Assembly (NCBI GenBank): GCA_048938295.1
Contig: JBHLMI010000011.1
Span: 1 to 32,000, forward strand
Length of the DNA: 32,000 nucleotides
DNA from: Promethearchaeota archaeon
GTDB taxonomy: Archaea > Asgardarchaeota > Hermodarchaeia > Hermodarchaeales > Hermodarchaeaceae
Direction of reading: 5' to 3'
Part shown: piece by piece, positions 1,899 to 31,580 of the stretch
Layout: each line of letters begins with the position of its first letter
Numbering within the stretch: the stretch's first letter is position 1
Notes under the pieces: model-generated
What the model was told of the DNA's origin: nothing
What the model saw: only the letters and a program-made list of their open reading frames with translations
The model's database searches: none
Program-made: the position numbers and the translations under genes

Positions 1899-2182
1899 AG
1901 TGTTCACCTCGATTCACTTGAGTTGAGATGGCGTTATCTCTCAGGGATAGGTGGCTGTGTCACGCAACCGTGCTGTTCCGTTGAATGTAATTCGGGGGAA
2001 TAGCTGCCTAGCACGATAAGCTAAAGCTCTTTAAAAAACGAAACTAAATCCTATTTGCTAACAACAAGTGGAAAGCCCGAGAGTGCTTATAGGTGTTGCT
2101 CTTCCTTGTATGTGACAGAAGTTTGCCCACAATTGGGTACTCCAGGTGGTTTCAGGTGCGTTATATGTTCGCATGAATGACT

Positions 2183-2240
2183 ATCGAAGACGTATTTGTG
2201 ATTCTTCATTAATGAGCTGAAAGATGTTTGAGTTCACATC
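2183..2240 (+). repeat. dispersed polar repeat copy (25-nt spacer class)
   Basis: ATCGAAGAC-GTATT-TG...CTGAAAGATGTTTGAGTTCACATC. Confidence 0.75.
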
Positions 2241-2332
2241 CTTGCTTGCTGAATTGAGTGTTTCAGGATAGTGCTAAGTTCGTAAATCTGTTCATTGTAA
2301 TGCCTACATGATGACTATGTGGGCCGAGTGGT

Positions 2333-3274
2333 TTAGGAGTGAGGGTGGTAGGATAGTGCGATTTGGATTTCTTCGATGTTTGCGTGTTGTTCGGCTAAAA
2401 GGGGTGCAGTATATTCGCTGGTTGAGAAGAAAATCTGTTCTCTGAGTGGGAGATCGGTCCATCCCGCGGCGACGGTTTCCTTGGCGAGTTCTATTAGCAA
2501 GCGTTTCCAAGCGGCTCGATAACCGGGTCGGACGGCGCGGAATCGCATTATGGCTCGTTCTTCCTTGCCTCTCAGAAAAATCCCATCGGGTTTGAATCTG
2601 AGGGGCGCGCTGGCGGCCACGATTTGATCTCCTTCGAACACCATGACTGCGTGCCCGTCTTTGAGGACTCGGTCTTTAAAGTAGCTCTCCCATGCTTCTT
2701 GGGTTGGGAAAGCATTGCGGGTATTGGGATCCGACTGGCAGACTTCAATTAGCCGAGTAATATCTTTACTTGTGGCCACTTGACTACGAAAGGAGCGAAT
2801 ATCTTCGGTTAGTTTCCATTCACTAACCTCCTTCACATCATAGTCTAGGGCATAGAGGAACACTCGCTCTTTCTCGGTGAAGCCGTTCTCTGTGAAAAAC
2901 CGGATTTGTTCATCAGCTATCTTTGAAGCCAATACTACTCCGGTAACGATTTCTTGAATTTTCTTGTTCTCTTTGATGTAGCTAATGAGGTCCTTGAAGA
3001 TTTTTTCTTGGACATTGGAGGGGCATCCGGGTAAAGCCCAAGGATAACCCATGCCAATCGTCCAGGGTTGGGAATCAGAGCCACTTGCTGAGATGTAGGC
3101 GAGTGGCTCGTCTTTTTCCGTAAACGCAAACCGCATCAGTTTTGGATCGCGATTTAGGGCTTGCAATCTGATCTGGTCCGCGGTCACGGGAAGACCTGAA
3201 GCCGTGGTGTAAATCTTGGCCCTTACTTCTTCTAGGTTCTGCTCTGGTTCATAATGACGATAAATGACTTTCAT
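2333..3274 (-). CDS. hypothetical protein, possible tandem GNAT-like acyltransferase fold
   Basis: 313-aa ORF with GGAGG RBS; two GNAT-like halves (FFTENGF; AVRPGYRAAWKRLL). Fold is a guess. Confidence 0.6.
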   Translation of the reverse strand: MKVIYRHYEPEQNLEEVRAKIYTTASGLPVTADQIRLQALNRDPKLMRFAFTEKDEPLAYISASGSDSQPWTIGMGYPWALPGCPSNVQEKIFKDLISYIKENKKIQEIVTGVVLASKIADEQIRFFTENGFTEKERVFLYALDYDVKEVSEWKLTEDIRSFRSQVATSKDITRLIEVCQSDPNTRNAFPTQEAWESYFKDRVLKDGHAVMVFEGDQIVAASAPLRFKPDGIFLRGKEERAIMRFRAVRPGYRAAWKRLLIELAKETVAAGWTDLPLREQIFFSTSEYTAPLLAEQHANIEEIQIALSYHPHS

Positions 3275-3455
3275 GTTCTATCAACCTCCTTACGTGGTGT
3301 CTTTATGATATCGATTCTTAGATTATGGACATTATGTATTGGGAATGGTTAAAACATTCTCAGGTATTGAGAAAATTACATTCTTCAGTTATAAAAACAT
3401 GATGAAACCGGATGCCAATTATTATCCGAACATCCGCAAACTCCGATAATATCGT

Positions 3456-4088
3456 CTAAGCTTCCTTTGTTTCTCCCCATCTTTCAAAATGCACCTTCTT
3501 TTGTAGTGACACCGGTTTTTGTTTTATAACGTGTTTATGTGGGTACCCGATTGGGATTATAGCGGCGATTTCGTAACCCTCGGGAATATTCAACGCTTTT
3601 TTGAGATCGACCGTATCGTAGGGTATCTTGGTCACGCCATACAACCCCTCTGCCGCCATCGCTAACAAAATATTTTCAATACAACACCACACGGAAGCGA
3701 AACTATTCAAGTCGAAAAGGGTTTTACAATTCTCGAGAGATTTTCTCATTCTAAAACAGACGATAAGCACTTCAGGTGCACTCAATAGCATTCTTTTCTG
3801 GACGGGCAACGCCTTTAGATACATCTCTTTCTCTAACTGATCAGTCATCCCCTCAGTCCATTCGTTAATCTCTTCACCTGAAAAATCGTGTGAACTCGGC
3901 TCCAACTCGAGAACTTCTTTCCTTCGTTCAATATTCTTCAGTAGAATAAATTCCCATTCTCTTTGATGATTATGCGTCGGAGCTTTCAATCCAGCATCTA
4001 AGACTCGTAGAAGTTTCTCCTTTTCCACCGGTTTAGCCTGAAACTCTCGGATACTCCGCCTCTTCTTGAGAACATTATAAAAATCCAT
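3456..4088 (-). CDS. nitroreductase family protein
   Basis: N-terminal KRRSIREF, APTHNHQREWEF, ENILLAMAAEGLYG and IPIGYP motifs. Confidence 0.92.
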   Translation of the reverse strand: MDFYNVLKKRRSIREFQAKPVEKEKLLRVLDAGLKAPTHNHQREWEFILLKNIERRKEVLELEPSSHDFSGEEINEWTEGMTDQLEKEMYLKALPVQKRMLLSAPEVLIVCFRMRKSLENCKTLFDLNSFASVWCCIENILLAMAAEGLYGVTKIPYDTVDLKKALNIPEGYEIAAIIPIGYPHKHVIKQKPVSLQKKVHFERWGETKEA

Positions 4089-4255
4089 GTTCCATCACCT
4101 TGGAATCCAGATATCTATTAGTAATTTCTGCTGACACAGCCCGAATTATCTTGTGAACACTTAAATTTCGTTTTTTACCTTTTGCATAGAGGTAACAACG
4201 ATCTCAACTGAAAGTAATTCAGATGTTGACAGTCTTGGTGGAAGATAGATCTGTA

Positions 4256-4600
4256 TTATGGGCTAGAGTCGCTATTCGCTTTTCTGTCAACTCGTACTTC
4301 ATAGTGTTGTGAGCGGGCATCATAGCGGGAAAGTAAGGCTCTCGCTTTCGGGGGAACCACGGCAGCTTCATAGTCTTCGCCAGCAAAGGCTCGGATGGCT
4401 TCAAGGGTGTCAAACCACATGATGGTGACGAACTCGACTTCCTTGTCAACCACCCGACGAAAGAGGTGAATGCCTCGATACCCTGCAATATGGCGGTCTT
4501 GAATCCCGTTGAATATTTCCTGTTTGAGAAGAGTTTCGTATGCGTCAGCATTTTGGGGTGTGGTCCATCCATGCCAGATTCGACTGATCATATTAATCAT
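4256..4600 (-). CDS. antibiotic biosynthesis monooxygenase (ABM)-like dimeric alpha/beta barrel protein
   Basis: MISRIWHGWT...EFVTIMWFDTLEAIRAFAGEDYEAAVVP..HYEV pattern; start may be the ATG at 4591. Confidence 0.85.
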   Translation of the reverse strand: MINMISRIWHGWTTPQNADAYETLLKQEIFNGIQDRHIAGYRGIHLFRRVVDKEVEFVTIMWFDTLEAIRAFAGEDYEAAVVPPKARALLSRYDARSQHYEVRVDRKANSDSSP

Positions 4601-4770
4601 TTCCCTGTTTGGGTAGGCTATCCTAGATTTTCACATTTGTGGGTGCTTATTGGGCTCTGATTGAACTTTAGGGTTAGAGTAGGTGAGTCTTCTCATTCAT
4701 TATGTGTCATTCTGCTATGCGTCGAGACTATTTAGTATTCTCAAAGAATTAATTTCAAGGTTATAGAAAT

Positions 4771-5076
4771 TTAGGCTAAGGGCATCACAAGATTACCCAG
4801 TATAACTCCCGCGCTCATTGCCTCCGTTGCTACAAGGCGATGAACATTATATGATCCATTTGAACCACAAGTTATTAGGAATTTAGGAGATTGTAGATAG
4901 TGCTTCTCTTTTTGAAGTAGATTCACTTCTTCTAACTCATCACGATATAATTAGCGTTTTCTCCTCAGATTTTCAAAGTCTTTTATCAGCCTATCTACGA
5001 CGTTATGAGATTCTGATAACATCTCTTCAACTAGGGCTTCTGGTAATTCAACAAATGGCTTTTCTTCCTTATTCAT
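4771..5076 (-). pseudogene. NurA-family nuclease N-terminal fragment (pseudogene)
   Basis: Hand translation: MNKEEKPFVELPEALVEEMLSESHNVVDRLIKDFENLRRKR*LYRDELEEVNLLQKEKHYLQSPKFLITCGSNGSYNVHRLVATEAMSAGVILGNLVMPLA*. In-frame TAA at 4951-4953; TCGSNGSY matches the NurA DGS catalytic motif with D>N; truncated at ~100 codons. Confidence 0.6.
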
Positions 5077-5165
5077 CAATCTCAAATTCTATAATCACGA
5101 CTTCAATGAGTATCAGTCAGTGTGAAGAATCCAATTTCAATTGCGAGAAGAGGGAGGTATTGAGA

Positions 5166-6452
5166 TTATAACGCGAGATAATGGACCAGTTGTTTTGTCA
5201 TATTGAGTAGGTCATCGATTCGGACCCATTCGTCGGGTTGGTGGGCTGAAATATTATCTAATGTTATTGCTCCAACGCCGATGAATTTGTCTGTGTTTAG
5301 TGCGTGAGCGACAAAGCCCATGTCTGTGGAGCCAGATGCACCACCATAAACAAAGTCACTGTCTTGGTAGCCGTGAACGGCTTTCAGGGCGGCTCGCATT
5401 TTTTGTGAATATTGATTTTCGGTATCGGCTTTAAAGGGGTAGTTGGCGTGGGTAAATGTAACTTCAACATCCAAGGCTTTACTGTTGGCTTGTCCTCGTT
5501 CAATGGCAGCACGAATCTCTTCAACGATATCCTCATAGTTTTCTTCTGGTATGTACCGACGATTGATGAGTAATTCACATTCTGAGGGGACAATATTGGC
5601 TTTGTTGCCTCCACTTATAATGTCAAGATTAAACATAGGTGTCATCTGATCTGAGGGGGCTCCCAAGCTTCGAAGCGCCGGAATGAGAGGAACCTTGGAT
5701 TCTCGTTTTTCTACTTCTTTTTTAAGTTTGAGCAACTCGACGAGGATGGGAACCATCTCTTCTACTGCGTTAATTCCTAGAAAGTTCATCCCAGAATGGC
5801 AACTTCGTCCTTTGGTGCGAATGGTAATATCGACCATCCCCGCTACACCACCCATGATAATTGGGAGCTGGGTGCCGAGTTCGGTATTGAGAATGTGTCC
5901 TTTCACGTACCCTTCTTTTGCTAAGTGATAAATGCCCGGGTAAACGCCAATTTCTTCATCGGTGCAAAGTGTGCAGATGAGATTGAAGTGGGGTGTAAGG
6001 TTGAGTTCATTCATGACCTCGAAGGCCACAAGCATACCCGCGATTCCCGATTTCATATCACAGGCGCCCCGGCCATACAGCTTGCCATTTTCAACAATAC
6101 CTGCAAAGGGATCCTTCGTCCAAGGCTCTTCAATGGGTACGACATCCATGTGGGCATAGATGGTGACCGCTTCTTTTTTGTCATGTTCGCGAGTGGCAAC
6201 AAGATTGATACGAGGACCTTCAAGAGGATAGGGGATTGCTTTGATATGTTCGTCCGGTACAATTACTCGTTCAGTAGTAAAGCCGAGGTTCTTGAAAAGT
6301 GGCTCCAAGAAATCGACCAAGTCTGCATAATTGTTACCTGGGGGGACAACCGTGGGAATCTTAATGCACTCTCGTAAGAGGTCGATGATCCGCTCACGTT
6401 TTTGCTCAACCGCCCTAAACACCTGTTCCACAGAGGGTTGTTTAGTGCCCAT
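5166..6452 (-). CDS. M20 family metallopeptidase/amidohydrolase (ArgE/DapE-like)
   Basis: AHMDVVP, LYGRGACDMKSG, TDEE, GRSCHSG, SAHQPDEW. Start placed at ATG 6452 after an AGGTGA RBS; the ORF is open to 6488. Confidence 0.93.
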   Translation of the reverse strand: MGTKQPSVEQVFRAVEQKRERIIDLLRECIKIPTVVPPGNNYADLVDFLEPLFKNLGFTTERVIVPDEHIKAIPYPLEGPRINLVATREHDKKEAVTIYAHMDVVPIEEPWTKDPFAGIVENGKLYGRGACDMKSGIAGMLVAFEVMNELNLTPHFNLICTLCTDEEIGVYPGIYHLAKEGYVKGHILNTELGTQLPIIMGGVAGMVDITIRTKGRSCHSGMNFLGINAVEEMVPILVELLKLKKEVEKRESKVPLIPALRSLGAPSDQMTPMFNLDIISGGNKANIVPSECELLINRRYIPEENYEDIVEEIRAAIERGQANSKALDVEVTFTHANYPFKADTENQYSQKMRAALKAVHGYQDSDFVYGGASGSTDMGFVAHALNTDKFIGVGAITLDNISAHQPDEWVRIDDLLNMTKQLVHYLAL

Positions 6453-6667
6453 GATAACAATCACCTTTGGCTGAAAGAGGTTCATCAAGCCTTATAAGCT
6501 GACCTCCTCAAGGAAGAATAGAATATTCCTCCTCTGACCCCACCAAAATGATCTGAATCTTCTCGGGGCTTTAGATATATATAGAGCCTCTAATCATAGC
6601 TGCAATGAATCTGGTTCGATGGGCTGTGGTCTGTCTTTTTAAGATTCACAACTTGTCATAGCGGTTA

Positions 6668-7915
6668 GTGGAGTGTGTTGTGATGGGTGAGTATAGTGAT
6701 GAATCATGGCGTAATTGGTGGTTAGCACCTTTTGGAATTTTTTACTTTGGACAGGGATATGCGCTGTCAGCCCTTGGCCTCTTTTTGCCCATATACCTAG
6801 TTACGGTGCTAGGTGTTCCCTTTGCGATTACTGGCTTAGCCTTAGCAGTGATTGGTATTCCGTGGATGCTTAAAATCATCTTTGGGGCCATCAGCGACTC
6901 GGTGGCGTGGGGTCGGTTTGGTCGTCGTCGTCCCTATATCATTTTAATGGCGTTACTGGCGGCAATCGGATGGGCACTAATCCCTTTCTTTCCAGAATTT
7001 AATTTGTTATTTGTCGCTATACTCTTCTTGGTTGCCCTAGCAACAGCGTTTGCTGATACCACGATTGATGGGTTTGCTGTGGATATTACGCCTTCTGATC
7101 GGCGAGGAACCTTACAGGGTATGATGTGGGGGGGAAGAGCAGCTGGATCCATTTTAGGCGCTTTAGTGACCGGCATTATCGCGCAAGCTATTGGATGGCC
7201 AATCGTCTTCTTCCTTGGAGCGATAATTCTATTAGTGATGACGGGAGTCTGCGCCCTTCTTAAGGAACCTGCAAAACCATCCGGGCATATGATGTGGAGT
7301 GCACTCAAGACTGGATTTTCGTCCAAGGGTGTATGGCTTTCGCTATTATTTACGCCGATTTTGACCATGAGTTTTGTATTTTATTTCCAATGGGGAGGGT
7401 TATTCATCGGAGAAACTGTGGCTTTAAGCTTGACAGAGATTGGTCTTGTTCTCGCCCTCATGAACACAGGAGCCGCCATTACAGGATTCCTTGGAGGACC
7501 TCTTGCAGATAAGATTGGACTCCGACGAGCCGTGGCTGGACTGGTGCTGGTACAAATTATTGGGTTGGCAGCGCTACTGTTCGTTCAACCGGGGAATCTC
7601 TATCTCGCGATTGTGATTATGTTTATTCATGGTCTGTGTTGGGGTCTGGCAAATATTGCTTGGCTTTCCCTTGCCATGGCTTCATGCCCCCGAGAAGTGG
7701 GAGGCACTTTCTTCTCAATTTATGCCATGATCTTTAACATAGGAACCATGCTTGCGGTGATTCTCAGCATTTTCATTAAACCTACCCTTGGATGGTCTGG
7801 TTTTATCCTGACCCTCATCGTCATCGTCATAATTAGCGAATTTGTTGGAATTTTAGCCGCTTCACAAGTCAAACAAGTGACCGCTATGAAAACACCACCT
7901 CCCGAAACGAGTTAG
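6668..7915 (+). CDS. MFS transporter (AmpG/BT1-like)
   Basis: About 12 hydrophobic segments; GAISDS...GRRRPY, DTTIDGFAVD and GPLADKIGLRR loop motifs. Confidence 0.9.
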   Translation: MECVVMGEYSDESWRNWWLAPFGIFYFGQGYALSALGLFLPIYLVTVLGVPFAITGLALAVIGIPWMLKIIFGAISDSVAWGRFGRRRPYIILMALLAAIGWALIPFFPEFNLLFVAILFLVALATAFADTTIDGFAVDITPSDRRGTLQGMMWGGRAAGSILGALVTGIIAQAIGWPIVFFLGAIILLVMTGVCALLKEPAKPSGHMMWSALKTGFSSKGVWLSLLFTPILTMSFVFYFQWGGLFIGETVALSLTEIGLVLALMNTGAAITGFLGGPLADKIGLRRAVAGLVLVQIIGLAALLFVQPGNLYLAIVIMFIHGLCWGLANIAWLSLAMASCPREVGGTFFSIYAMIFNIGTMLAVILSIFIKPTLGWSGFILTLIVIVIISEFVGILAASQVKQVTAMKTPPPETS

Positions 7916-8062
7916 ATACACCCAATCATTATCTATCAGGTTCAGGCAACAATATGCACACGATGCAGTGCGCGTCAACTACCACCGACTGAAGTCGCTG
8001 GTTTCCTTGACCAGGCTTCTATGATGCATATATAGGAGCCTCTAGCATAAACCCTCGGACCG

Positions 8063-10861
8063 GTGATAGGCATGAGCAGAGAATCTCCACCAGAAGGGCT
8101 CCTCGACTATTCAGAATGTCTAGCGAGCCTCGGCACAGACCCTGAAGGGCTGAAACCAGAAGAGGCTAAAAAGAAGCTCTTGGAACACGGACGTAACGAA
8201 CTCACAATGAAGGAGAGGCAGAGCCCCGTTTCGCTCTTCCTCCGTCAGTTCAAATCGCCTCTGGTGTATGTTCTCATTTTTGCCGCCGTTGTCTCTATTC
8301 TAGTAGACCATGCAGTAGACGCAGTGGTCATCGCCATCATTCTCTTGATCAATGCGACTATAGGCTTCGTCCAGGAGTGGAAGGCAGAAAGAACCATCGA
8401 GTCCATCAAACAGCTCATAGAACAGCGGTCCATCGTCATTCGCGGTGGAGAGGAGACCGAGATCCCGTCCGCAGAGCTGGTGCCTGGGGACCTGCTCCTT
8501 CTCAGAGCTGGCGAGAAGGTCCCAGCAGACGGAAGGGTGTTATTCGAGAGCAACCTGCATGTCGATGAGAGTCTCCTCACTGGCGAGAGCGTACCAATCA
8601 AGAAAGATGTGTTCTGCGCGGTTGAGAACCCACACTACTATGAGGAGTCCAACAAGGTCTTCGCTGGCTCGTATGTTACAGAAGGACGCGCCCGTATTCT
8701 AGTGCTGGCTACTGGTGATAACACCACTTTAGGTGAAATCAACAAGGAGCTCTCGGGCGTCGCTAAGAAAGAAACAACCATCATGATTCGAGTAAAGCGA
8801 CTGAGCATCTTCTTTCTTGCTGCTGCAATGCTCTTCTTGGTGCTCACAGTAATTTTGGGGCTCTACCGGAGCATACCCGTTGTGGAGCTCTTACTGTTCT
8901 CACTATCTGCACTTGTATCTGCAATTCCTGAGGGACTCATCGCTATTGTCACCATAGTGCTCTCTGTTGGAGTCTACAAGCTTTCACAGAAGAATGTCAT
9001 TGTGAGAAACTTGGGTGTCGTAGAAACGCTAGGCCTAGTCAATGTCATTTGCTCCGACAAGACCGGAACTCTTACGAAGAACCAAATGATGACCCGCAGG
9101 ATATTCACTCCGAACCATATGTTCGAGATAAGTGGCGTAGGATTTGATGTCGAAAGCGGAGGGGTCTTCCTTGCAGGCTGTGGCCCAGCAGAATGCCTTC
9201 GTTCGCCAGACCTCGATATGAGCCAAGGGTCCTCAGAAGAGCGCATCGAGGGGGATGGGCTCAAGGAGTACCCCGATCTTGAAAGGCTTCTGACGATGAT
9301 GGCTCTCTGTAATGACTCAGAAGTCTATTCGGAGTGCCTCACAGCAGACGACCCAACGAGAATCTGCACCGGAGCCGATCAGGCATGGAGGATACGCGGG
9401 TCACCTACTGAGGCTGCTCTGCTGGTGGCGTTGGAGAAGGTCGGTCTTCACAAGTATGTGCTCGATGAGGCCTGGCCACGTATTTCTGAGATTCCCTTCA
9501 ACAGCGAGAGGAAGTTCATGGCTACGCTTCATCAGCCCAGCAAGCTCCTGGGTGCAGAAGGAGAGGAAAATCTGGTCATAGTAAAGGGAGCCCCAGAGGT
9601 CATAGAGCAGTTACTTGTGGCCCAATCAAACACAGAGGAGATCGTAACGGAGTTCGCTTCACAAGGACTCAGAATGCTCGCATGCGCGGTCAGGACTGTA
9701 TCCCCTGATAAGACCCAGATAGCCCAGGAGGATCTCAGAGACATGGCATTCGTTGGACTCTGTGGAATCAACGACCCACCAAGGGAAGCCGTCCGTGACT
9801 ACATCGAGAAGGCAAACAGTGCAGGCATTGCTGTCATCATGATAACTGGTGACAATGCCTTTACAGCCAAGGCAATTGGGCAGGAAGTGGGCATCTTTGT
9901 TGAGGAGAGAGGAGACCTGATACTTACTGGTGATGAGATAGATGCTATGGATGACCAGCAGCTTCAAGATGCACTGACTCATGGTGCAACAGTCCTCTCC
10001 AGAACGAGCCCAATCCACAAGCTCAGAGTTGTAAAAGCACTGCAGAGCCTCGACAAGCTCGTCAGCATGACGGGCGATGGCGTGAATGACAGCCCAGCTC
10101 TAAGACAGGCTAACGTTGGCATAGCTATGGGCGTCACAGGGACTGACATCGCCAAGGAAGCCTCTGATATCGTGCTGCAGGACGAGCGCTTTGAGGCTGT
10201 AGTCGACGGCATTGAAGAGGGTAGAAACATCCTGGCTTCGCTCCGGCGTGTTGTTCTCTTTCTGACATCGACGAATCTGGCCGAGAGCTTCACTATCCTT
10301 GCAGTGCTCTTGCTTTTCGTGAATCCTGTTCTTCTGCTTCCGATTCAAATCCTTTGGGTCAATCTCGTTACTGATGGCATGCTAGACATTGCGCTCTCTC
10401 TCGAGCCAAAGGAGAAGGGTCTCTTGGATGAAGGGCCAGGCTCCCTGAAGGATCGGATCCTCTCTTGGGAAACCCTCAGCAGAGCGCTCTTCTATGGTGG
10501 CATCATGGCATCCTTAGTTGTCATCATCTACTACCAGAATCTTGGTCTGCCAGAGGACAAGATCAGGACAATGATGTTCGTTACTCTTATCGTGGTCCAG
10601 TGGTTCAGCGTCCAGAATTGCAGATCCCCCACCAAGTCAATTCGAGAGATGGGAATCCTTCGGAATCGATACATACTCGTCGTCTATCTCATCAACATCA
10701 TACTAGTCGGAATCCTCTTTGTGGTCCCAGCGCTAACAGCAGTCTTCAAAATTGTGCCGCTTTCTTGGTATGAATGGATTGAAGTGGTCCTGTTCGGATC
10801 CTTGGTTATCATCCTTGAAGAAGCAAGGAAGCTCGTAGCAAAGAGACTGCGCAATGACTAG
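8063..10861 (+). CDS. P2A-type cation (probably Ca2+) transporting P-type ATPase
   Basis: TGES, AIPEGL (M4), DKTGT, KGAPE, DPPR, TGDGVND, M5 TNLAE, M6 WVNLVTDG. M8 has Q at the SERCA E908 position. Confidence 0.95.
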   Translation: MIGMSRESPPEGLLDYSECLASLGTDPEGLKPEEAKKKLLEHGRNELTMKERQSPVSLFLRQFKSPLVYVLIFAAVVSILVDHAVDAVVIAIILLINATIGFVQEWKAERTIESIKQLIEQRSIVIRGGEETEIPSAELVPGDLLLLRAGEKVPADGRVLFESNLHVDESLLTGESVPIKKDVFCAVENPHYYEESNKVFAGSYVTEGRARILVLATGDNTTLGEINKELSGVAKKETTIMIRVKRLSIFFLAAAMLFLVLTVILGLYRSIPVVELLLFSLSALVSAIPEGLIAIVTIVLSVGVYKLSQKNVIVRNLGVVETLGLVNVICSDKTGTLTKNQMMTRRIFTPNHMFEISGVGFDVESGGVFLAGCGPAECLRSPDLDMSQGSSEERIEGDGLKEYPDLERLLTMMALCNDSEVYSECLTADDPTRICTGADQAWRIRGSPTEAALLVALEKVGLHKYVLDEAWPRISEIPFNSERKFMATLHQPSKLLGAEGEENLVIVKGAPEVIEQLLVAQSNTEEIVTEFASQGLRMLACAVRTVSPDKTQIAQEDLRDMAFVGLCGINDPPREAVRDYIEKANSAGIAVIMITGDNAFTAKAIGQEVGIFVEERGDLILTGDEIDAMDDQQLQDALTHGATVLSRTSPIHKLRVVKALQSLDKLVSMTGDGVNDSPALRQANVGIAMGVTGTDIAKEASDIVLQDERFEAVVDGIEEGRNILASLRRVVLFLTSTNLAESFTILAVLLLFVNPVLLLPIQILWVNLVTDGMLDIALSLEPKEKGLLDEGPGSLKDRILSWETLSRALFYGGIMASLVVIIYYQNLGLPEDKIRTMMFVTLIVVQWFSVQNCRSPTKSIREMGILRNRYILVVYLINIILVGILFVVPALTAVFKIVPLSWYEWIEVVLFGSLVIILEEARKLVAKRLRND

Positions 10862-11076
10862 AGCGGAGTCTTTCGGTAAGCGTCAGGAACCCGTATTTCA
10901 GTGTCGCCAGCAAACACATCCCTAAGCAGCTAAATGTACTCGTCAATGTCCTTTAGGCGCTTGTCCCTCGCGTTGGGTTTGATGTTCGACTCAACGACTC
11001 AGAGAGATTTCGATTTGTCTCAAGATAACAAAGGTTTAATTGCATTCGAATTCGAAGGCTGGTAGAGGTACCTGTA

Positions 11077-11880
11077 TTGAATAATTCGGTGTCGGTCGAT
11101 GCGTTGAAACCTACAACGTGGGGTGGGTTTTGGGACATTTTCGGTGAGGTTCTAGTTGACCTCCTAGATATTCAGGAAGGACAGCGTGTGCTAGATGTGG
11201 GCACCGGCGGGGGGTCCGTGCTCTATCCCCTTTCGAAAAAAGTCGGTGCATCAGGATGTGTCATTGGCGTCGAAACATGTGATCATTGTGTGAAAAATAC
11301 CAATGCAGAAATTCAGCGATGTAAGATTCACAATGCAGTGGTGCATTACATGGATGCACGTGAAGCCGAATTCGAGGACTACTCCTTTGATTGCGTCACG
11401 GCTGGCTTCATTGGGTGGGACGATTACTTTGACTTCCAGACACTTGAGTACAAGAAAGCCGATGCGCTGATGGAGGCAATATGTAGATTTCTAAAGCCCG
11501 CAGGGAAGTTTGGCATGAGTACGTGGCTCCTGCAAGAGGATCTGGATTGGATGTATAAGTTCCTCTCAGCGCAGTCAATTGAGTGCAAACGCAATTACTC
11601 CACTGAGAATGAGAAAGGATGGAAAAAGATTCTCTCACTAGCCGGATTCCAGAATATACGAGGATACACTAAGCAGGCTTCATTCACCTATGATACTCTT
11701 GATTTCTGGTGGCAAGAGATGATGGACTATAATTGGCTTGTCACAGGAAAAAACAGTGATGTGATTACTGAGTCCATAAAGGCAGCAGCGTTTGCATCAT
11801 TACAAGGGCGGTTGACAGAGACTGGTGGCATACCCTTCAGGCGCGATGCACTCTTTGTGACGGCAATCCGCCAGGCATAG
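11077..11880 (+). CDS. class I SAM-dependent methyltransferase (UbiE-like)
   Basis: VLDVGTGGG motif I, MDA, SFDCV, LKPAGKF; TTG start. Confidence 0.88.
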   Translation: MNNSVSVDALKPTTWGGFWDIFGEVLVDLLDIQEGQRVLDVGTGGGSVLYPLSKKVGASGCVIGVETCDHCVKNTNAEIQRCKIHNAVVHYMDAREAEFEDYSFDCVTAGFIGWDDYFDFQTLEYKKADALMEAICRFLKPAGKFGMSTWLLQEDLDWMYKFLSAQSIECKRNYSTENEKGWKKILSLAGFQNIRGYTKQASFTYDTLDFWWQEMMDYNWLVTGKNSDVITESIKAAAFASLQGRLTETGGIPFRRDALFVTAIRQA

Positions 11881-11944
11881 CTCACTATGAAGCCCAATTT
11901 CCTGGCAAACCAATTACACAAGATGACTTGAATTTCAGTTAGTT

Positions 11945-11980
11945 TTGGAAGACTTTTATTCATTATTCACGCATGCCTAG
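11945..11980 (+). repeat. possible degenerate left half of the dispersed polar repeat
   Basis: TTGGAAGAC (1 mismatch), followed after 18 nt by CATGCCTAG, as in the 16728 copy; no right half. Confidence 0.3.
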
Positions 11981-11997
11981 CTGGAGGGTCTAAGGTA

Positions 11998-12876
11998 GTG
12001 CGATTCTTCATTGGATTGTATACAAATTGGATGAATGAGTGGCCGGCTATTGAAGAGGTGGTGCTGGCTGCCGATCGGTTGGGATTTGATGGCGTTGTGA
12101 TGCCAGACCATTATATGTTCAGCGAAGAAGTCATGGCCATTCGTCCGGACCGGAATGCCACCTTAGAATCTTGGATTGCAATAGCGGTCCTTGCGAGTCG
12201 GACAGAGCGAGTGCGGTTGGGAACATTAGTATCGCCCATTCCACTGCGTCCCCCGGGATTACTGGCAAAGATAGTAACCACGGTGGATGTCTTGTCCAAG
12301 GGTCGAGTCGTATTAGGTGTGGGCGCCGGTTGGTCAGATGTCGAATTCGAAGGGTATAGCGTATGGGATTCACCCAAGGTACGCGTTGGTAAGGTTGAAG
12401 AAGGCGTGGAATTGATGCGCCGCTTATGGACCGAGGACGCCGTGTCTTTTGAAGGGAAGTATTACCAGGCAAAGGATGCTGTGTTGGAACCGAAACCGGT
12501 GCAACAACCCCATCCAACCCTGCTCTTTGGAGGGCATAAAAACCGAATGCTGAGGCTAGCTGGTCGGTTTGCTGATCTTGCATATATTAAAACCGCTGAG
12601 GAAAATTTGGATTTGGAATGTGAGCTCTTTGAGGAGAAAAAAGCGAAGGTGCTACAAAGTGCCAAGGACCATAATCGGAGCAATGAGCTGGCGTTTATGT
12701 TTGGGAGTTTTCATGTTCACCTCTTATATAGTGCATTTGATGTGAAGGAGTGTCAGGATCGGGTGGAAGCCGCGGAAAAGGTGGGCGCCCAGTATTTTTT
12801 GACCCCATTTCCAGCGGGAAGACAAGTTGAAGCGATGAAACAGTTTGCAAAAGAGATTATGCCATCTTATTCGTAA
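11998..12876 (+). CDS. LLM-class flavin/F420-dependent oxidoreductase
   Basis: GFDGVVMPDH, RVRLGTLVS, SKGRVVLGVGAGW and PKPVQQPHPTLLFGG motifs. Confidence 0.92.
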   Translation: MRFFIGLYTNWMNEWPAIEEVVLAADRLGFDGVVMPDHYMFSEEVMAIRPDRNATLESWIAIAVLASRTERVRLGTLVSPIPLRPPGLLAKIVTTVDVLSKGRVVLGVGAGWSDVEFEGYSVWDSPKVRVGKVEEGVELMRRLWTEDAVSFEGKYYQAKDAVLEPKPVQQPHPTLLFGGHKNRMLRLAGRFADLAYIKTAEENLDLECELFEEKKAKVLQSAKDHNRSNELAFMFGSFHVHLLYSAFDVKECQDRVEAAEKVGAQYFLTPFPAGRQVEAMKQFAKEIMPSYS

Positions 12877-12931
12877 GCACTAAATTCGTCTAGTCAACCA
12901 ATTTTCTGTGTTACCGCCTTTTTGACAATTA

Positions 12932-12984
12932 TTCGAAGACGCGAGTCTTCAACATGCTGTGAACGATGATTTAATTCGTATCAT
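12932..12984 (+). repeat. dispersed polar repeat copy (shortened, 18-nt spacer)
   Basis: TTCGAAGAC...GTGAACGATGATTTAATTCGTATCAT; internal hairpin GAAGAC-GCGA-GTCTTC. Confidence 0.65.
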
Positions 12985-13036
12985 AAATGCACCACTCTGA
13001 AGTCAATAGCGAGCTTGTATGAATGAGGATTTGTTC

Positions 13037-13690
13037 TCATTCTTCGATATCGGTTTTCTTTTTCTGGAGCTGTTCAATGGTTTTGTAAGAGTTCCACAAA
13101 TTACCTTGAAACATAGCAAAAGGGATAATCAAGATTAATTGGACTACGAACATACCCACTAACCTAATGAGGATCACCCCTAATGGGCCCCATAGAAGGC
13201 TTATCATCGCTTCTAGATTGACAAATGTTAGATAGAAGAATTTGGAAGCGGTGAAACACGCAAGATTAATTAAAAATAGTCCAAAACTGAAGATGAAATA
13301 CAAGAGCAATTGCACGGCTCGTCGAAGATTTTTTTCCACATTCTGTTGGAGCTCAGCAAACTTTTCAGACGGAAATAAAGTGGGTTCTATTTCGAGGGTT
13401 TTGTTAGCTAGGTAGAACTGAATTTCGTGGCTGATGATAGAACCAATGATGGCTAGTCCGAGAGCGTAGGTGATGGTGAGGAACATCACCAGCGGCATCC
13501 CCCACGTTGTAAGCATTTCTTGGGGATATTCGAGGATATAAATCACAACTATGAATAAGAAGCCGAGAAGAACTCCTACTAACCCAAGTATGGCGTCAAA
13601 GTGGATAGTAGGGCGTTGAAGTTTGGCTGGATTATCCGTCACTATAAGACCTCCTGAGCAGTTCAACAGACACAGACCACATTCAGTCAT
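13037..13690 (-). CDS. hypothetical membrane protein (about 4 TM)
   Basis: 217-aa ORF with four long hydrophobic segments; start uncertain; no family recognised. Confidence 0.7.
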   Translation of the reverse strand: MTECGLCLLNCSGGLIVTDNPAKLQRPTIHFDAILGLVGVLLGFLFIVVIYILEYPQEMLTTWGMPLVMFLTITYALGLAIIGSIISHEIQFYLANKTLEIEPTLFPSEKFAELQQNVEKNLRRAVQLLLYFIFSFGLFLINLACFTASKFFYLTFVNLEAMISLLWGPLGVILIRLVGMFVVQLILIIPFAMFQGNLWNSYKTIEQLQKKKTDIEE

Positions 13691-13919
13691 GAGCCATCAA
13701 CGGGAAATCGAACTGGTTCTCAAGAGCTTATTAGAAGACACTTTTTGGTTAATAAGATGTTACTTTACTTGATTAGCGTAGACTACTATTCTAGTTCTTG
13801 ATGTGATGATGTTATTTAGTGCTCTTTTGTTTGGCTTCGGTTTCTGATACTATTTTCTGGTGTTATTTGGCAGCCACTAAGAGAGAGAAAATCCAATGAT
13901 GATGCAAACCTGACTTTAG

Positions 13920-13975
13920 TTCGAAGATTGATCTGTAATTCTAAGTAATTGTTATTGTGAGGTAGCTTGGTTATT
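13920..13975 (+). repeat. degenerate dispersed polar repeat copy
   Basis: TTCGAAGAT-TGATC-TG-TAATTCTAA...GTGAGG; resembles the 19103 copy (CTGTGATTTCTAA); overlaps the stop codon at 13952. Confidence 0.5.
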
Positions 13976-14677
13976 TGAGTCCTTGATTAGTTCAAACTGG
14001 CATCTAGCATCACAAATTTCATCAGGGTTCAGTGTGACCACACTTAGGGCAATGGCCATTGGGTGTCTAAGTGGTTCCTTCCAATTTCGTTTTACTTTAG
14101 AAAGATGCACCTGTAAATCTTGGATGAATTCTGTGAGTCTGATGTCTAGACCATCAAACTGTCCCTTTTCCGCAACATGAAACCCAATAATCTTGGTGAC
14201 CTTATGGCACGCTTCTTGATTTCCATTGTTAATCGGGTGTCTTTGAGAAAGCATAAGGCGGGTAGTGAGTTGGTTGAGTATGAGAGGAACAGTTTCCCAT
14301 GCCTGTACCCAACGGTTGAGTATTTCGGATCCCTTTTTTTCCTGTGCATAGTTCACGAGTCCATCAGCTGTGGTACGTTCGAGTAATTGTCCGAGGGTTT
14401 GGTGAATGTAATAGTGGGTACGATAACGGCGATCTTCCACGGTTGCATCTTCTTCTTTGGTAAGAAGGCCTAGTTTTAACATCAGGGCTAGACTTCTGAA
14501 TACGCTGGCATGTGCAAGTTCAGTTTTTTCCCTCAGTTCGGATGGCGTGGTTTTGCCGAAGAGTTGTAAGTAAGCGTAGATGAGTAATGTCGAGTCTTGG
14601 TTGATGACTCGAATGATGTCTTGAATTCTTGAGAGTTTGACATCTTGAGATGCAGTGGGGGATGGATTGGGAGGAAT
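13952..14677 (-). CDS. winged-helix transcription regulator (MarR/ArsR/TrmB-like N-terminus)
   Basis: The frame of ORF 13952..14482 stays open upstream through LLIYAYLQLFGKTTPSELREKTELAHASVFRSLALMLKLGLL (wHTH). It reaches an ATT at 14677, six nt after AGGTGA; start codon inferred. Confidence 0.75.
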   Translation of the reverse strand: MPPNPSPTASQDVKLSRIQDIIRVINQDSTLLIYAYLQLFGKTTPSELREKTELAHASVFRSLALMLKLGLLTKEEDATVEDRRYRTHYYIHQTLGQLLERTTADGLVNYAQEKKGSEILNRWVQAWETVPLILNQLTTRLMLSQRHPINNGNQEACHKVTKIIGFHVAEKGQFDGLDIRLTEFIQDLQVHLSKVKRNWKEPLRHPMAIALSVVTLNPDEICDARCQFELIKDSNNQATSQ

Positions 14678-14778
14678 TGCAGTTCACCTACTCAGAGACG
14701 ATGACCTAGTGATGTGTATGTGGATCGTCCAGTTCTTGACTGAAGTCCGTTGAGAGTAGTTGCCTTTTGTCTTAAGAA

Positions 14779-14796
14779 TATATCTTGTGAGATATA
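14779..14796. promoter_or_regulatory. palindromic operator candidate TATATC-N6-GATATA
   Basis: TATATCT-TGTG-AGATATA, ~100 bp upstream of the wHTH gene. Confidence 0.5.
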
Positions 14797-14824
14797 GGTT
14801 CGTAACTCGGAGGCTAATAGCTAC

Positions 14825-15694
14825 TCAATTAATGAGCGCAAAGCGGGTATTCGGGTAATCGATGACTAGTGTGTAACTCTTCAGGAAGGGATATCCGAGA
14901 ACGCCATAATTAATTTCGTCACCGTTTGGAGAAATTAGTTTGAGATCGATTACACCCACATCCATGTTCTCTTGGGTGACTGAACCCACGGTGAGTTGGT
15001 GTAAGGTCGCACCAAATCCGGTTGCAACGCCTGTAGGGCCAACACAAACGCCTTGAGAACATCCCTGAGCTTGCGCAATTTTCTGCTCTTCGCTGCGTTG
15101 GGGTTGGTCATCAGTAATTCCTAATGTGTTCGCTATTGAAGGAGTGATGACCGTTCCAGAAGCTCCAGTATCGAGGATTAGTTCAAAAGGTCCCTGACCG
15201 TTAAGGTGAACAGGAACCCTCATTAGATGAGTGCCTTCTACATACTGGAATGGAATCCACTCGACATTCTTCTCACCCATTGCTGATGGATCTAGCTGTT
15301 TTTCGAGTGTTACGGTTTCAGTCTGATAGTCAATTATTAGGATGTAATCTTTCAAAATATCGTGACCAATGACTCCTGGGGTGAAACAACCAGCTCCCGT
15401 GATCGGGCTAAAATCGATTATTGCAATCGCCTTATCGTGAAAGGTGAATTTTCCTAATTGGAGGCTCGACACCGTTGCTGTTTTGACGGGAATTGGGTTT
15501 CCACCCACACCAATGGCTTTGGCTTTGGAACTTTGATATACCTCGAGGTCAATCTGATCAGCGAGCGCTTTGGAGATCACTGTCATTCCAGCCCCGGTGT
15601 CCAATGTGAAGTCAAATGGGCCTTTTCCGTTGACATATGCTGAGAGGTGGATGTGACCTGAATCTTTGGCGAGTCTAATTTTCACAGTGCTCAC
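14825..15694 (-). CDS. twin-domain retropepsin-like aspartyl protease (clan AA)
   Basis: Two catalytic motifs, FTLDTGAG and LILDTGAS, each followed by a GVIGHD / GVLGYP-type motif. Confidence 0.9.
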   Translation of the reverse strand: MSTVKIRLAKDSGHIHLSAYVNGKGPFDFTLDTGAGMTVISKALADQIDLEVYQSSKAKAIGVGGNPIPVKTATVSSLQLGKFTFHDKAIAIIDFSPITGAGCFTPGVIGHDILKDYILIIDYQTETVTLEKQLDPSAMGEKNVEWIPFQYVEGTHLMRVPVHLNGQGPFELILDTGASGTVITPSIANTLGITDDQPQRSEEQKIAQAQGCSQGVCVGPTGVATGFGATLHQLTVGSVTQENMDVGVIDLKLISPNGDEINYGVLGYPFLKSYTLVIDYPNTRFALIN

Positions 15695-15717
15695 TTCTTT
15701 TTACTTTTAAGGGAAAC

Positions 15718-15735
15718 TATATCACGGATGATATA
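15718..15735. promoter_or_regulatory. palindromic operator candidate TATATC-N6-GATATA
   Basis: TATATCA-CGGA-TGATATA, perfect 7-bp arms, 24 bp upstream of the protease start. Confidence 0.5.
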
Positions 15736-15771
15736 TATTAAACCTGTCTCTTCAATGAGATATATTAAGTT

Positions 15772-15829
15772 TTCGATGACAGAGATGCTGTTTTTCACTA
15801 ATGAAGTGAAAGGTGATTTGTTTTACATC
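15772..15829 (+). repeat. dispersed polar repeat copy (25-nt spacer class)
   Basis: TTCGATGAC-AGAGA-TG...GTGAAAGGTGATTTGTTTTACATC. Confidence 0.85.
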
Positions 15830-16028
15830 TTAAGAAATCATGCATCTCAAATCTTCAGCGAATTAAAGAACTAAGCTACTATCTTGATCCACTTTTCGAT
15901 GGTTTTATGGAAACGAAAGCACCATATTCCCCCTCCATACACCTTGAAATCCTCATTCAGCGTTTCCTAAAAACAGACCAAAATCCTTTTTTCAGAAATT
16001 CTCTATTGTGAATGAGGTGTAGCTATGC

Positions 16029-16553
16029 ATGGTTTCAAAATATAGTTTCAAAGTTATTATGATGGGAGATGGTGCAGTTGGAAAAACCTCTTTGGTTATT
16101 CGATATACGGAAAATCGTTTTGATCTAAAATACAAAGCGACTTTAGGTGCAGCCTTTGCCGCCAAAGAGGTTAAGATCACTAATGTCGAAATCAACCTAA
16201 TGATTTGGGATCTAGCAGGTCAGCCTTCGTTTGATGAGGTACGGGATCGTTATTACCTAGGTTCTTCAGCAGCCATACTTGTTTTCGACGTTACTAATGC
16301 TTCAACCACTGAGAAACTAAGAAACTGGTTAGTAAAATTCAGAAAACAGGTTCCGAAAGGACCAGTCATTTTAGTTGGGAATAAAACAGATTTGGAGGAA
16401 AAACGTCAAATCTCAACCCAAGAAGCACATGAGATTAGAGACAAATTACAATTACCGTATTTTGAAACATCCTGTTCAACCGGCGATGGAGTCAATGAGG
16501 TATTCCACAGCCTTATCATTAAAACCCTCGAAGCCAAGGAAAGAAGAAGATAA
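16029..16553 (+). CDS. Rab-like small GTPase (eukaryotic signature protein)
   Basis: G1 GDGAVGKT, switch I YKATLGAAF, G3 WDLAGQ, G4 GNKTD, G5 ETSC; RabF-like LMIW, YYLGS and LVFDVT; no C-terminal Cys motif. Confidence 0.95.
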   Translation: MVSKYSFKVIMMGDGAVGKTSLVIRYTENRFDLKYKATLGAAFAAKEVKITNVEINLMIWDLAGQPSFDEVRDRYYLGSSAAILVFDVTNASTTEKLRNWLVKFRKQVPKGPVILVGNKTDLEEKRQISTQEAHEIRDKLQLPYFETSCSTGDGVNEVFHSLIIKTLEAKERRR

Positions 16554-16727
16554 ACAGCTAAACGCCCAAATAGCGTTTATGAATCATATGGTTATTTTTC
16601 TCTTCGATGAGCATCGCATCATTCTTTCTAATTATATCAAAATAAGATTTTACCTGAGGATTTGTTCAAGCATTAATTCTCTTTGAGTTGGTCTCTTTTA
16701 CAATTGTTATTGGCTTTTTGAGATATT

Positions 16728-16788
16728 TTCGAAGACATACATGCCTAGAATCTTTCAAGTGATGTGAAAGATAGATTTGTTTTACATC
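16728..16788 (+). repeat. dispersed polar repeat copy (27-nt spacer class, closest to consensus)
   Basis: TTCGAAGACATACATGCCTAGAATCTTTCAAGTGATGTGAAAGATAGATTTGTTTTACATC. Confidence 0.9.
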
Positions 16789-18909: not shown

Positions 18910-19102
18910 CTCAAAAAATATGCTAGAAAATCTTAATTCTGGAGTAAATCGAGAAATTTCTTGTAAAAAGCTTTGTAAATTGCTAACGAGACATGGATGT
19001 TCAATTAGAAAACCGCATATGGCATGAGTAAAAGCGGCGATTATCGGCTCCTGGGACTGAACCAGTTCGTTCTTTGAGCGTTATCCGCTATTTCTTTTTA
19101 AT

Positions 19103-19160
19103 TTCGAAGACATACCTGTGATTTCTAACAAATAATGTGAAAGATTTCATCTTTTAAGTT
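19103..19160 (+). repeat. dispersed polar repeat copy (25-nt spacer class, 3' end decayed)
   Basis: TTCGAAGAC-ATACC-TG...AATAATGTGAAAGAT. Confidence 0.8.
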
Positions 19161-20451: not shown

Positions 20452-20604
20452 ATATTATTCTTTGCATCATTGACACATATTGTCGATTCTACGATAGGCG
20501 AAACATCGAGTCAAATGTTAATACTCCCGTAAGCTAAAATCTACTATTGGTGCCTAGTTTCGGGCAAGCAATTTTTCCTAGTGCTATTCGCAATTCTCTA
20601 TATT

Positions 20605-20665
20605 TTCGAAGACACAAATGCCTTGTATTGAATTAACGATGTGAAAAATAGATTCGTTTCTCGTC
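20605..20665 (+). repeat. dispersed polar repeat copy (27-nt spacer class)
   Basis: TTCGAAGAC-ACAAA-TG...AACGATGTGAAAAATAGATTCGTTTCTCGTC. Confidence 0.87.
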
Positions 20666-22368: not shown

Positions 22369-22436
22369 CTACTACCTTTGAATAAATGGTATTGAATTCT
22401 AATGTTCTTCGAAGGGCTTTTACTAGTTGAATTAAA

Positions 22437-22494
22437 TTCAAAGACATGTCTGCAATTTCTTCCAAATAGCCTGAAGATTATTTGTTTTGTATAT
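22437..22494 (+). repeat. degenerate dispersed polar repeat copy (25-nt spacer class)
   Basis: TTCAAAGAC-ATGTC-TG...TTCCAAATAGC-CTGAAGATTATTTGTTTT. Confidence 0.65.
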
Positions 22495-23359: not shown

Positions 23360-23407
23360 ACACGCACCAACAATTATTTTCCTGTAATAAACGCCCCCTC
23401 TAAGGAT

Positions 23408-23465
23408 TACGAAGACGCAGGTGCTGTTTTTTCCAAATAACGTGAAAGATGATTTGTTTCACATA
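23408..23465 (+). repeat. dispersed polar repeat copy (25-nt spacer class)
   Basis: TACGAAGAC-GCAGG-TG...GTGAAAGATGATTTGTTTCACATA. Confidence 0.87.
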
Positions 23466-26233: not shown

Positions 26234-26337
26234 CGGGAACCTCCGCTATACGTGCGCTATTATTGGGGTTTTGTGTTTTAACTGGCTTTCTTTATTCTGA
26301 AAATGATTTTTGATATCGTTTCTGATGTTTATAATTG

Positions 26338-26371
26338 CTCAACGATGTGAAAGATAGATTTGTTTCGCGTT
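26338..26371 (+). repeat. dispersed polar repeat, right half (27-nt class type)
   Basis: CTCAACGATGTGAAAGATAGATTTGTTTCGCGTT; left box not recognisable. Confidence 0.8.
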
Positions 26372-26462
26372 AAAGGATCGATCTTTACGCATTTGAAACT
26401 AAATAAGGATATAAGACTTCTAAAAGGAGTTTTGACAGAAGTTTCGGTCACTTGAATCACTA

Positions 26463-31291: not shown

Positions 31292-31519
31292 CTCGCTAAC
31301 AACAGCACTGTATCAGCTAAATAAATTCATGGAGAATATGGTTTTCGAGGATCTTTCCATTCCCCGGGTTTTCAGTTGAAGCAATCGTATTAGGATTACT
31401 TCTAACGCTTAGTCTAGGAGTTCTCGTTCGACGTCACAGAAGGAAGTAGCACCGCTTCCTTCTCTCCTCTTTTTTTGCGAAGAAGCTTTTCCAAGGTGTT
31501 AATCGCCTTTCTTCCCAAT

Positions 31520-31580
31520 TTCGAAGACATACATGCCTGGAATCTTTCAAATGATGTGAAAGAAAGATGTGTTTCACTCC
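31520..31580 (+). repeat. dispersed polar repeat copy (27-nt spacer class)
   Basis: TTCGAAGACATACATGCCTGGAATCTTTCAAATGATGTGAAAGAAAGATGTGTTTCACTCC. Confidence 0.9.

Follow-up and report, generated by a model that had tools for sequence, protein, structure and literature searches.

The window analysed here, 32 kb long, is the start of a 66-kb contig (C66) of a Hermodarchaeum genome (G000) that comprises 2.5 Mb in 66 contigs and has a G+C content of 45.8%. Near its middle lies the gene of a Rab-like small GTPase, which is bracketed by two co-oriented copies of a non-coding repeat with a spacing of 956 bp, at the very places given in a preliminary description of this DNA (Table 1). As was also proposed there, the interval between the two copies holds only one credible gene; the other open reading frames, which are short or overlap the GTPase gene in another frame or on the opposite strand, are taken as spurious. 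The GTPase has the motifs GDGAVGKT, WDLAGQ, GNKTD, and ETSCS, and the details that had been read from its sequence are right, namely a switch I TLGAAF and a C-terminus, EAKERRR, without a prenylation Cys. Its best matches among solved structures (PDB) are Rab21 (4e-40) and a Thorarchaeota Rab (7ezb, 3e-39), followed by Rab5. The protein shares with 7ezb the G1-G5 motifs, the Rab5/21-like switch I and the missing prenylation Cys, whereas eukaryotic Rabs have a C-terminal prenylation Cys motif. Orthologs with 93–96% amino acid identity are found in only three of the 15 genomes of the genus, and the next relatives, which are 49–51% identical, form a core group present in most of them. Among 5.8 billion proteins there is a single close cluster (95%), beyond which identity does not exceed 52%. 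The core paralog of G000 (49% identical) has a gene for a tyrosine recombinase at a distance of 0.6 kb (G000:C33:7137-9592), probably as part of a strain-specific integrated element beside the core gene. To the left of the GTPase, a gene on the minus strand (14825-15694) encodes a protease with two retropepsin-like Asp_protease_2 domains in a single chain, and this gene is conserved in five relatives at 70–73%.

Table 1. Copies of the repeat, the Rab-like GTPase gene and its surrounding segments in the 32-kb window (nhmmer, profile search; CM, covariance model).
Feature	Position	Strand	Basis
Site copy	2160..2237	+	nhmmer + CM
Left junction site	15747..15831	+	CM E=4e-16
GTPase packet, ~956 bp, Box 1 core to Box 1 core	15778..16733	+	Homology breaks
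Rab-like small GTPase, 174 aa	16029..16553	+	Pfam Ras E=9.4e-50, G1-G5 complete
Short stretch with putative Box 2-like remnant GATTTGTTCAAG	16638..16705	+	Alignment breaks
Right junction site, complete	16703..16788	+	CM E=1.7e-19
Site copy, Box 2 truncated	19080..19145	+	nhmmer + CM
Site copy	20583..20662	+	nhmmer + CM
Site copy, weaker	22423..22487	+	Model search
Site copy	23390..23462	+	nhmmer + CM
Site copy, left half decayed	26286..26379	+	nhmmer + CM
Site copy; core 92% identical to 16727-16786, both flanks different	31498..31577	+	

The repeat has a length of ~85 nt. G000 contains 15 copies, all of them on C66 and on the plus strand, spanning 220-50860 (iterated nhmmer), and a search of the other 65 contigs with nhmmer gave none. 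For the whole genus we collected 110 copies of this site on 28 stretches from 12 Hermodarchaeum genomes, and the consensus was built on 109 of them. Within each contig the orientation of the sites is uniform, with one weak exception. The site begins with Box 0 (TTTT-N6-GTTATnnGC), which is followed by a variable linker of 12 nt, by Box 1 (TTTCGAAGAC, then nTAnnTGC), by a variable spacer of ~22 nt and finally by Box 2, a palindrome of the form 11-9-11 (ATGATGTGAAA-GATGATTTG-TTTCACATCAT). Throughout the 109 copies the boxes are conserved and the linker and spacer are variable; the most invariant stretch of all is CGAAGAC, with a pairwise identity of 0.85–0.98. By chance, 0.00 occurrences of the core motifs are expected in the 32-kb window. 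The two copies next to the GTPase had been called well conserved, and this is only fairly the case, with an identity of 75% from Box 1 to Box 2 and of 69% over the whole element. The copy at 19080-19145 is devoid of the right arm of Box 2, which, to judge from G003 and G004 (97% identical on the left), may have been lost by a secondary deletion or by an exchange within Box 2.

A coding repeat was ruled out by stops in all six frames across the copies, and a known RNA or tRNA by the lack of any Rfam match at gathering score and of any tRNA in the window. A structured RNA or attC-like fold was rejected as well: RNAalifold predicted 0 pairs on the site copies, no covariation was detected between the site columns (highest mutual information 0.27), and single copies fold about like shuffled sequence on both strands (mean folding z ~ -1.2). 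Boxes that are conserved in primary sequence and do not covary fit the recognition of duplex DNA by a protein.

With a sequence-only covariance model the repeat was found in 13 of the 14 other Hermodarchaeum genomes, most of which have 6–26 copies, and 137 other Asgard genomes (four of the sister genus and 133 further ones) yielded no copy. When 185,579 species, each represented by one genome, were scanned with a pattern, true copies emerged solely in Hermodarchaeum-type MAGs; the ~45 other matches are due to chance. We also considered a virus or plasmid as carrier of the site and rejected this idea, as none of 83 pattern matches among the IMG/VR contigs was scored by the covariance model. No published description of the Hermodarchaeum site was found in the literature. 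A different co-oriented repeat of ~110 nt is present with seven copies in G000:C18:4000-11500. Its sequence is unrelated to the site of C66; in it, a G+C-rich hairpin (GGGAGGC..GCCTCCC) precedes what appears to be the conserved 3' end of a gene on the minus strand.

The DNA between two successive sites is called a packet in the following. The 85 inter-site intervals have a median length of ~1.4 kb, and 39 of them contain one gene and 21 contain two genes. The genes face both ways, 107 in the direction of the site and 91 opposite to it. The sites are nearer to the 3' than to the 5' ends of the genes, which suggests that packets come with promoters of their own. The cargo comprises many transporters (MFS, P-type ATPases, TauE, GDT1, FTR1, a Na/H exchanger and an ABC protein), and besides these redox enzymes, peptidases, regulators of the ArsR/TrmB type and hemerythrin. 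The genes at the edges of the arrays are metabolic or transport genes. The commonest cargo is a secreted protein of ~450 aa (G003:C67:2076-3416, G012:C42:38226-39716, and eight others) with ~8 repeats of the form EVSTGGFAI..G.T.S.G....D.WLIRTD..GN.LWN.T.GG, a C-terminal membrane anchor and no Pfam match. The possibility that this most widespread protein of the arrays is a DNA enzyme was rejected, as it is a secreted repeat protein of the cell surface (beta-propeller-like). A block with a P-type cation ATPase at 8021-10889 of the window is 91% identical to a block of G012:C42 that is flanked by two sites. In G000 it has no clear flanking copies, and a weak copy is located at 12916. The stretch free of repeats from 2238 to 15768 may consist of several packets whose sites have decayed.

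How the GTPase packet was joined to its neighbors can be read from both of its ends. At the left site, Box 1 (TTTCGATGAC, 15771-15780) is followed by the spacer and the Box 2 palindrome (15800-15829). However, the left half of this copy, up to ~15776, is the native upstream region of the adjacent protease gene and not repeat sequence. G014 and G007, both of which are without the repeat at this place, are homologous to the upstream region of the protease gene, and this homology ends inside Box 1, at TTTCG (...TTAAGGTTTCG). Therefore, the GTPase packet was joined there to a bare half-core. The homology to the GTPase packet of G003 begins at 15767. From the spacer and Box 2 the packet continues with a 200-bp upstream region, the GTPase gene, its 3' region and finally Box 0 with the linker. 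At the right site, Box 0 (GTTATTGGC) occupies 16706-16714 and Box 1 (TTTCGAAGAC) 16727-16736, and Box 2 ends at 16788.

The preliminary description had taken the repeats as possible recombination sites and had asked for the presence or absence of the interval in related strains. The 956-bp interval is present in three of the 15 genomes of the genus, with different neighbors on both sides, and it behaves as a discrete unit in two other species, which supports the repeats as junctions. With 93% DNA identity and in unrelated flanks, the packet is found on G003:C66 (corresponding to 15767-16637) and on G012:C50 (15957-16744). In G003 it is preceded by a different site copy and followed by a different site, which comes 68 nt earlier; the alignment to G003 breaks at 16637, and the stretch 16638-16705 is missing there, the own site of G003 starting at this point. 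Within this stretch, the sequence GATTTGTTCAAG appears to be a decayed remnant of a Box 2. In G012, the packet retains its right site, and other sequence takes the place of its left part from 15957 on. At the right end, identity to G012 persists through Box 1 (TTTCGAAGAC) and breaks off as soon as variable positions follow.

BLAST comparison with 30 relatives revealed that shared blocks end at the repeats. C66 and G012:C42 have 15 blocks in common, with unchanged strand throughout and a permuted order, and further block orders are found in G011 and G004. A conserved chromosomal position of the array was also considered; a right-hand backbone common to three relatives matches C20:17-38 kb of G000, and C20 is free of repeats and not joined to C66. 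Packets are 81–97% identical between species, whereas the syntenic backbone reaches only 68–77%, so packets have moved between species after their divergence, as this mosaic of identities implies. Contigs from other samples in Logan bridge the protease/GTPase, the GTPase/site and the site/next packet junctions, and therefore the order in G000 is not an artefact of one assembly. Exact runs common to the repeats are ~20 nt long and are judged too short to mislead an assembler. The Logan loose ends at 16727 and 16782 are explained by alignment of the copy at 31498 to that at 16706. Those at 16625 (a variant contig of run X3), 19173 and 20570 are each represented by a single contig of low depth and give a hint of other neighbors in wild strains. 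Neither a circle nor an excision joint was apparent in these assembled contigs.

The site family, its polarity, its restriction to one genus and the end of shared blocks at its copies are direct observations. The repeats are very likely the junction sites of a genus-specific gene-cassette array, in which the GTPase is one single-gene packet. The window together with the rest of the contig would then represent a variable region that extends over 50 kb or more, made up of packets of one to four accessory genes, which have their own promoter, point in either direction and would be joined head to tail by the polar site of ~85 nt. By exchange at the sites, mostly inside the invariant Box 1, packets could be deleted, inserted and passed between Hermodarchaeum species. 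As the exchange would take place at these sites, orientation is kept and order and neighbors change.

A completely different origin of the repeat would be a small non-autonomous element, a MITE or PATE-like relic of the IS200/IS605 type, that has inserted between genes, with the breaks of synteny being coincidental. The repeat is indeed short, non-coding, intergenic and multi-copy, and a search with PF07282 identified eleven TnpB-like genes (IS605 OrfB) in G000, all of them outside C66. However, no TnpA accompanies them, the copies have one orientation and are confined to one region of the 2.5-Mb genome, and neither terminal inverted repeats nor target duplications were noticed in passing. Moreover, the left half of the copies moves together with the packet on its left and Box 2 with the one on its right, unlike what an inserted element would do. 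We therefore regard this origin as very improbable.

Where within the site the exchange occurs can be narrowed down with the help of the flanks. Among inter-genome pairs of sites, only the left flank is common in 23 and only the right flank in 11, and there is no pair that shares both; these pairs represent 12 independent left families and 11 independent right families. In the left-sharing pairs the excess identity is +0.3 to +0.6 in the variable linker and falls to background by +2 to +10 of Box 1. According to these profiles, the left-hand linkage ends inside the invariant core TTTCGAAGAC. On the right-hand side, six of eight HSPs of right-sharing pairs start at -4 to +1 of Box 1, and linkage is partial in the spacer and full from Box 2 on, the spacer being only weakly linked to either neighbor. 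In three-way comparisons some crossovers map in or next to Box 2, and they scatter from ~-35 to +55 with no fixed base. Furthermore, the cores 16727-16782 and 31519-31574 are near-identical although both of their flanks are different, which indicates either a second exchange zone or cores that were homogenized by conversion.

On balance, this exchange is probably site-specific and brought about by a recombinase that acts in trans, and a packet would then pass through a circle with one hybrid site. The scattered crossovers and the weak linkage of the spacer suit a homology-driven exchange or gene conversion as well. In that case, the main role of the repeat could be that of a protein-binding punctuation, an insulator or a small-RNA element between transcription units, and the packets would be swapped by homologous recombination or gene conversion on the conserved boxes with no dedicated recombinase. 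The near-identical cores in different flanks resemble conversion, and the searches described below yielded no candidate recombinase, both in line with this explanation. On the other hand, the left-hand linkage stops in an invariant core of 7–10 nt, which is judged too short for homologous exchange, Box 2 being longer, and a bare TTTCG half-site, devoid of further homology, can serve as one partner. Neither the strict polarity nor the confinement to a single region is explained in this way, and a small-RNA role has the missing RNA fold, Rfam match and covariation against it. Hence, exchange by homology alone appears rather unlikely to us.

No recombinase was found in or beside the arrays examined, which included C66, the array contigs of the relatives and the flanks, all in fragmented MAGs. 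Searches of the G000 genome for a serine recombinase (PF00239), a Y1 transposase (PF01797) and IS110 (PF01548) were negative. Across the genus, PF00589 identified one XerA-like gene per genome and sporadic others, all of them off the array contigs. The XerA-like gene is the only recombinase that is common to the genus, and the site does not appear dif-like. The second tyrosine recombinase of G000 (443 aa), encoded on C33, was found in no relative.

The preliminary description had gone one step further and proposed that the repeats are a direct mechanism for copying and shuffling small GTPases and other eukaryotic-signature genes. The cargo does include one Rab-like GTPase, and in addition a protein with LRRs is encoded at 459-1295. 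However, only one of the 33 Ras-family genes of G000 lies in the array, and ~0.8 would be expected there by chance, as estimated from the share of the array in the genome. Array contigs from 12 genomes, 344 kb in total, contain no repeat-flanked GTPase other than that of this packet, which occurs in three genomes, so that a special link of the repeats with small GTPases is not borne out. Nor is the packet GTPase a duplicate of a resident gene, the nearest paralog being only 49% identical and part of the core group. Transporters and enzymes dominate the cargo, which does not support a device for shuffling eukaryotic-signature genes. Absence of enrichment combined with synteny of the GTPase in relatives without the repeats had been named as evidence against the proposal. 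Enrichment is absent, but the GTPase is not syntenic in the repeat-less relatives. All in all, it is hardly credible that the repeats preferentially copy or shuffle such genes. What distinguishes this GTPase from the Asgard Rab-like GTPases is that it is accessory and patchy and is carried as a packet.

In its layout, the array corresponds to a sedentary integron or CALIN. For archaeal integrons, an enrichment in Asgard genomes has been reported (PMC9668308), and data file 3 of that study records two clustered attC sites for a Hermodarchaeum MAG (contig JABXGY010000468.1) and six for the sister genus YT-063 (Ghaly et al., 2022). Similar to sedentary integrons and CALINs (PMC9668308), the Hermodarchaeum array is long and chromosomal, has a co-oriented and lineage-specific site and small packets, differs in content and order between relatives and has packets that are common to several species. 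However, the inverted R'' (RYYYAAC) and R' (GTTRRRY) boxes of attC are present in none of the 109 copies on either strand, and a crude scan without bulges gave no attC-like candidates in the 344 kb of array contigs. In contrast to attC, conservation lies in the sequence boxes and not in a single-strand hairpin. The crossover core is TTTCGAAGAC and not G/TT, and no IntI with attI was found next to the array in these fragmented MAGs. Unlike integron cassettes, the genes face both ways and have their own upstream regions, and many packets contain two to four genes.

CIMEs and tandem accretion, as described by the Guedon group (PMC5704250), are similar in their tandem units, their direct att-like repeats and the missing recombinase of their own; here as there, units could be mobilized in cis or in trans, and an existing site could take up new ones. 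The Hermodarchaeum units differ in being only 1–3 kb long and without relics of integration or transfer, and in having dozens of sites instead of two or three. Moreover, the site does not coincide with the 3' terminus of a tRNA or protein gene, and no integrase-encoding element of matching specificity was found. Xer-dependent modules, such as the pdif modules of Acinetobacter plasmids and IMEX, are delimited by short sites and rely on a housekeeping recombinase that is encoded elsewhere; the pdif modules have an 11-6-11 dif-like core and sites that are alternately inverted. The genus-wide presence of XerA as the only recombinase would go along with such a system. In Hermodarchaeum, however, Box 2 has the form 11-9-11, linkage breaks at Box 1 and not in the palindrome, and the sites are direct.

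We give an about even chance to the assumption that Hermodarchaeum has a previously undescribed site-specific gene-capture system, with a duplex site, CGAAGAC as exchange core, an accessory palindrome and a recombinase encoded elsewhere, or a re-used XerA, by which self-expressed packets of genes are stored and traded between species, occasionally with eukaryote-like genes. The unit of exchange is defined to within a few bases, and it moves between species whose backbone DNA differs by ~25–30%. A Rab-like gene can travel as cargo, although the array gives no explanation for the expansion of small GTPases in Asgard archaea. Should the enzyme be found, the system would represent a second way of capturing genes, independent of integrons, and possibly a genetic tool for Asgard archaea.
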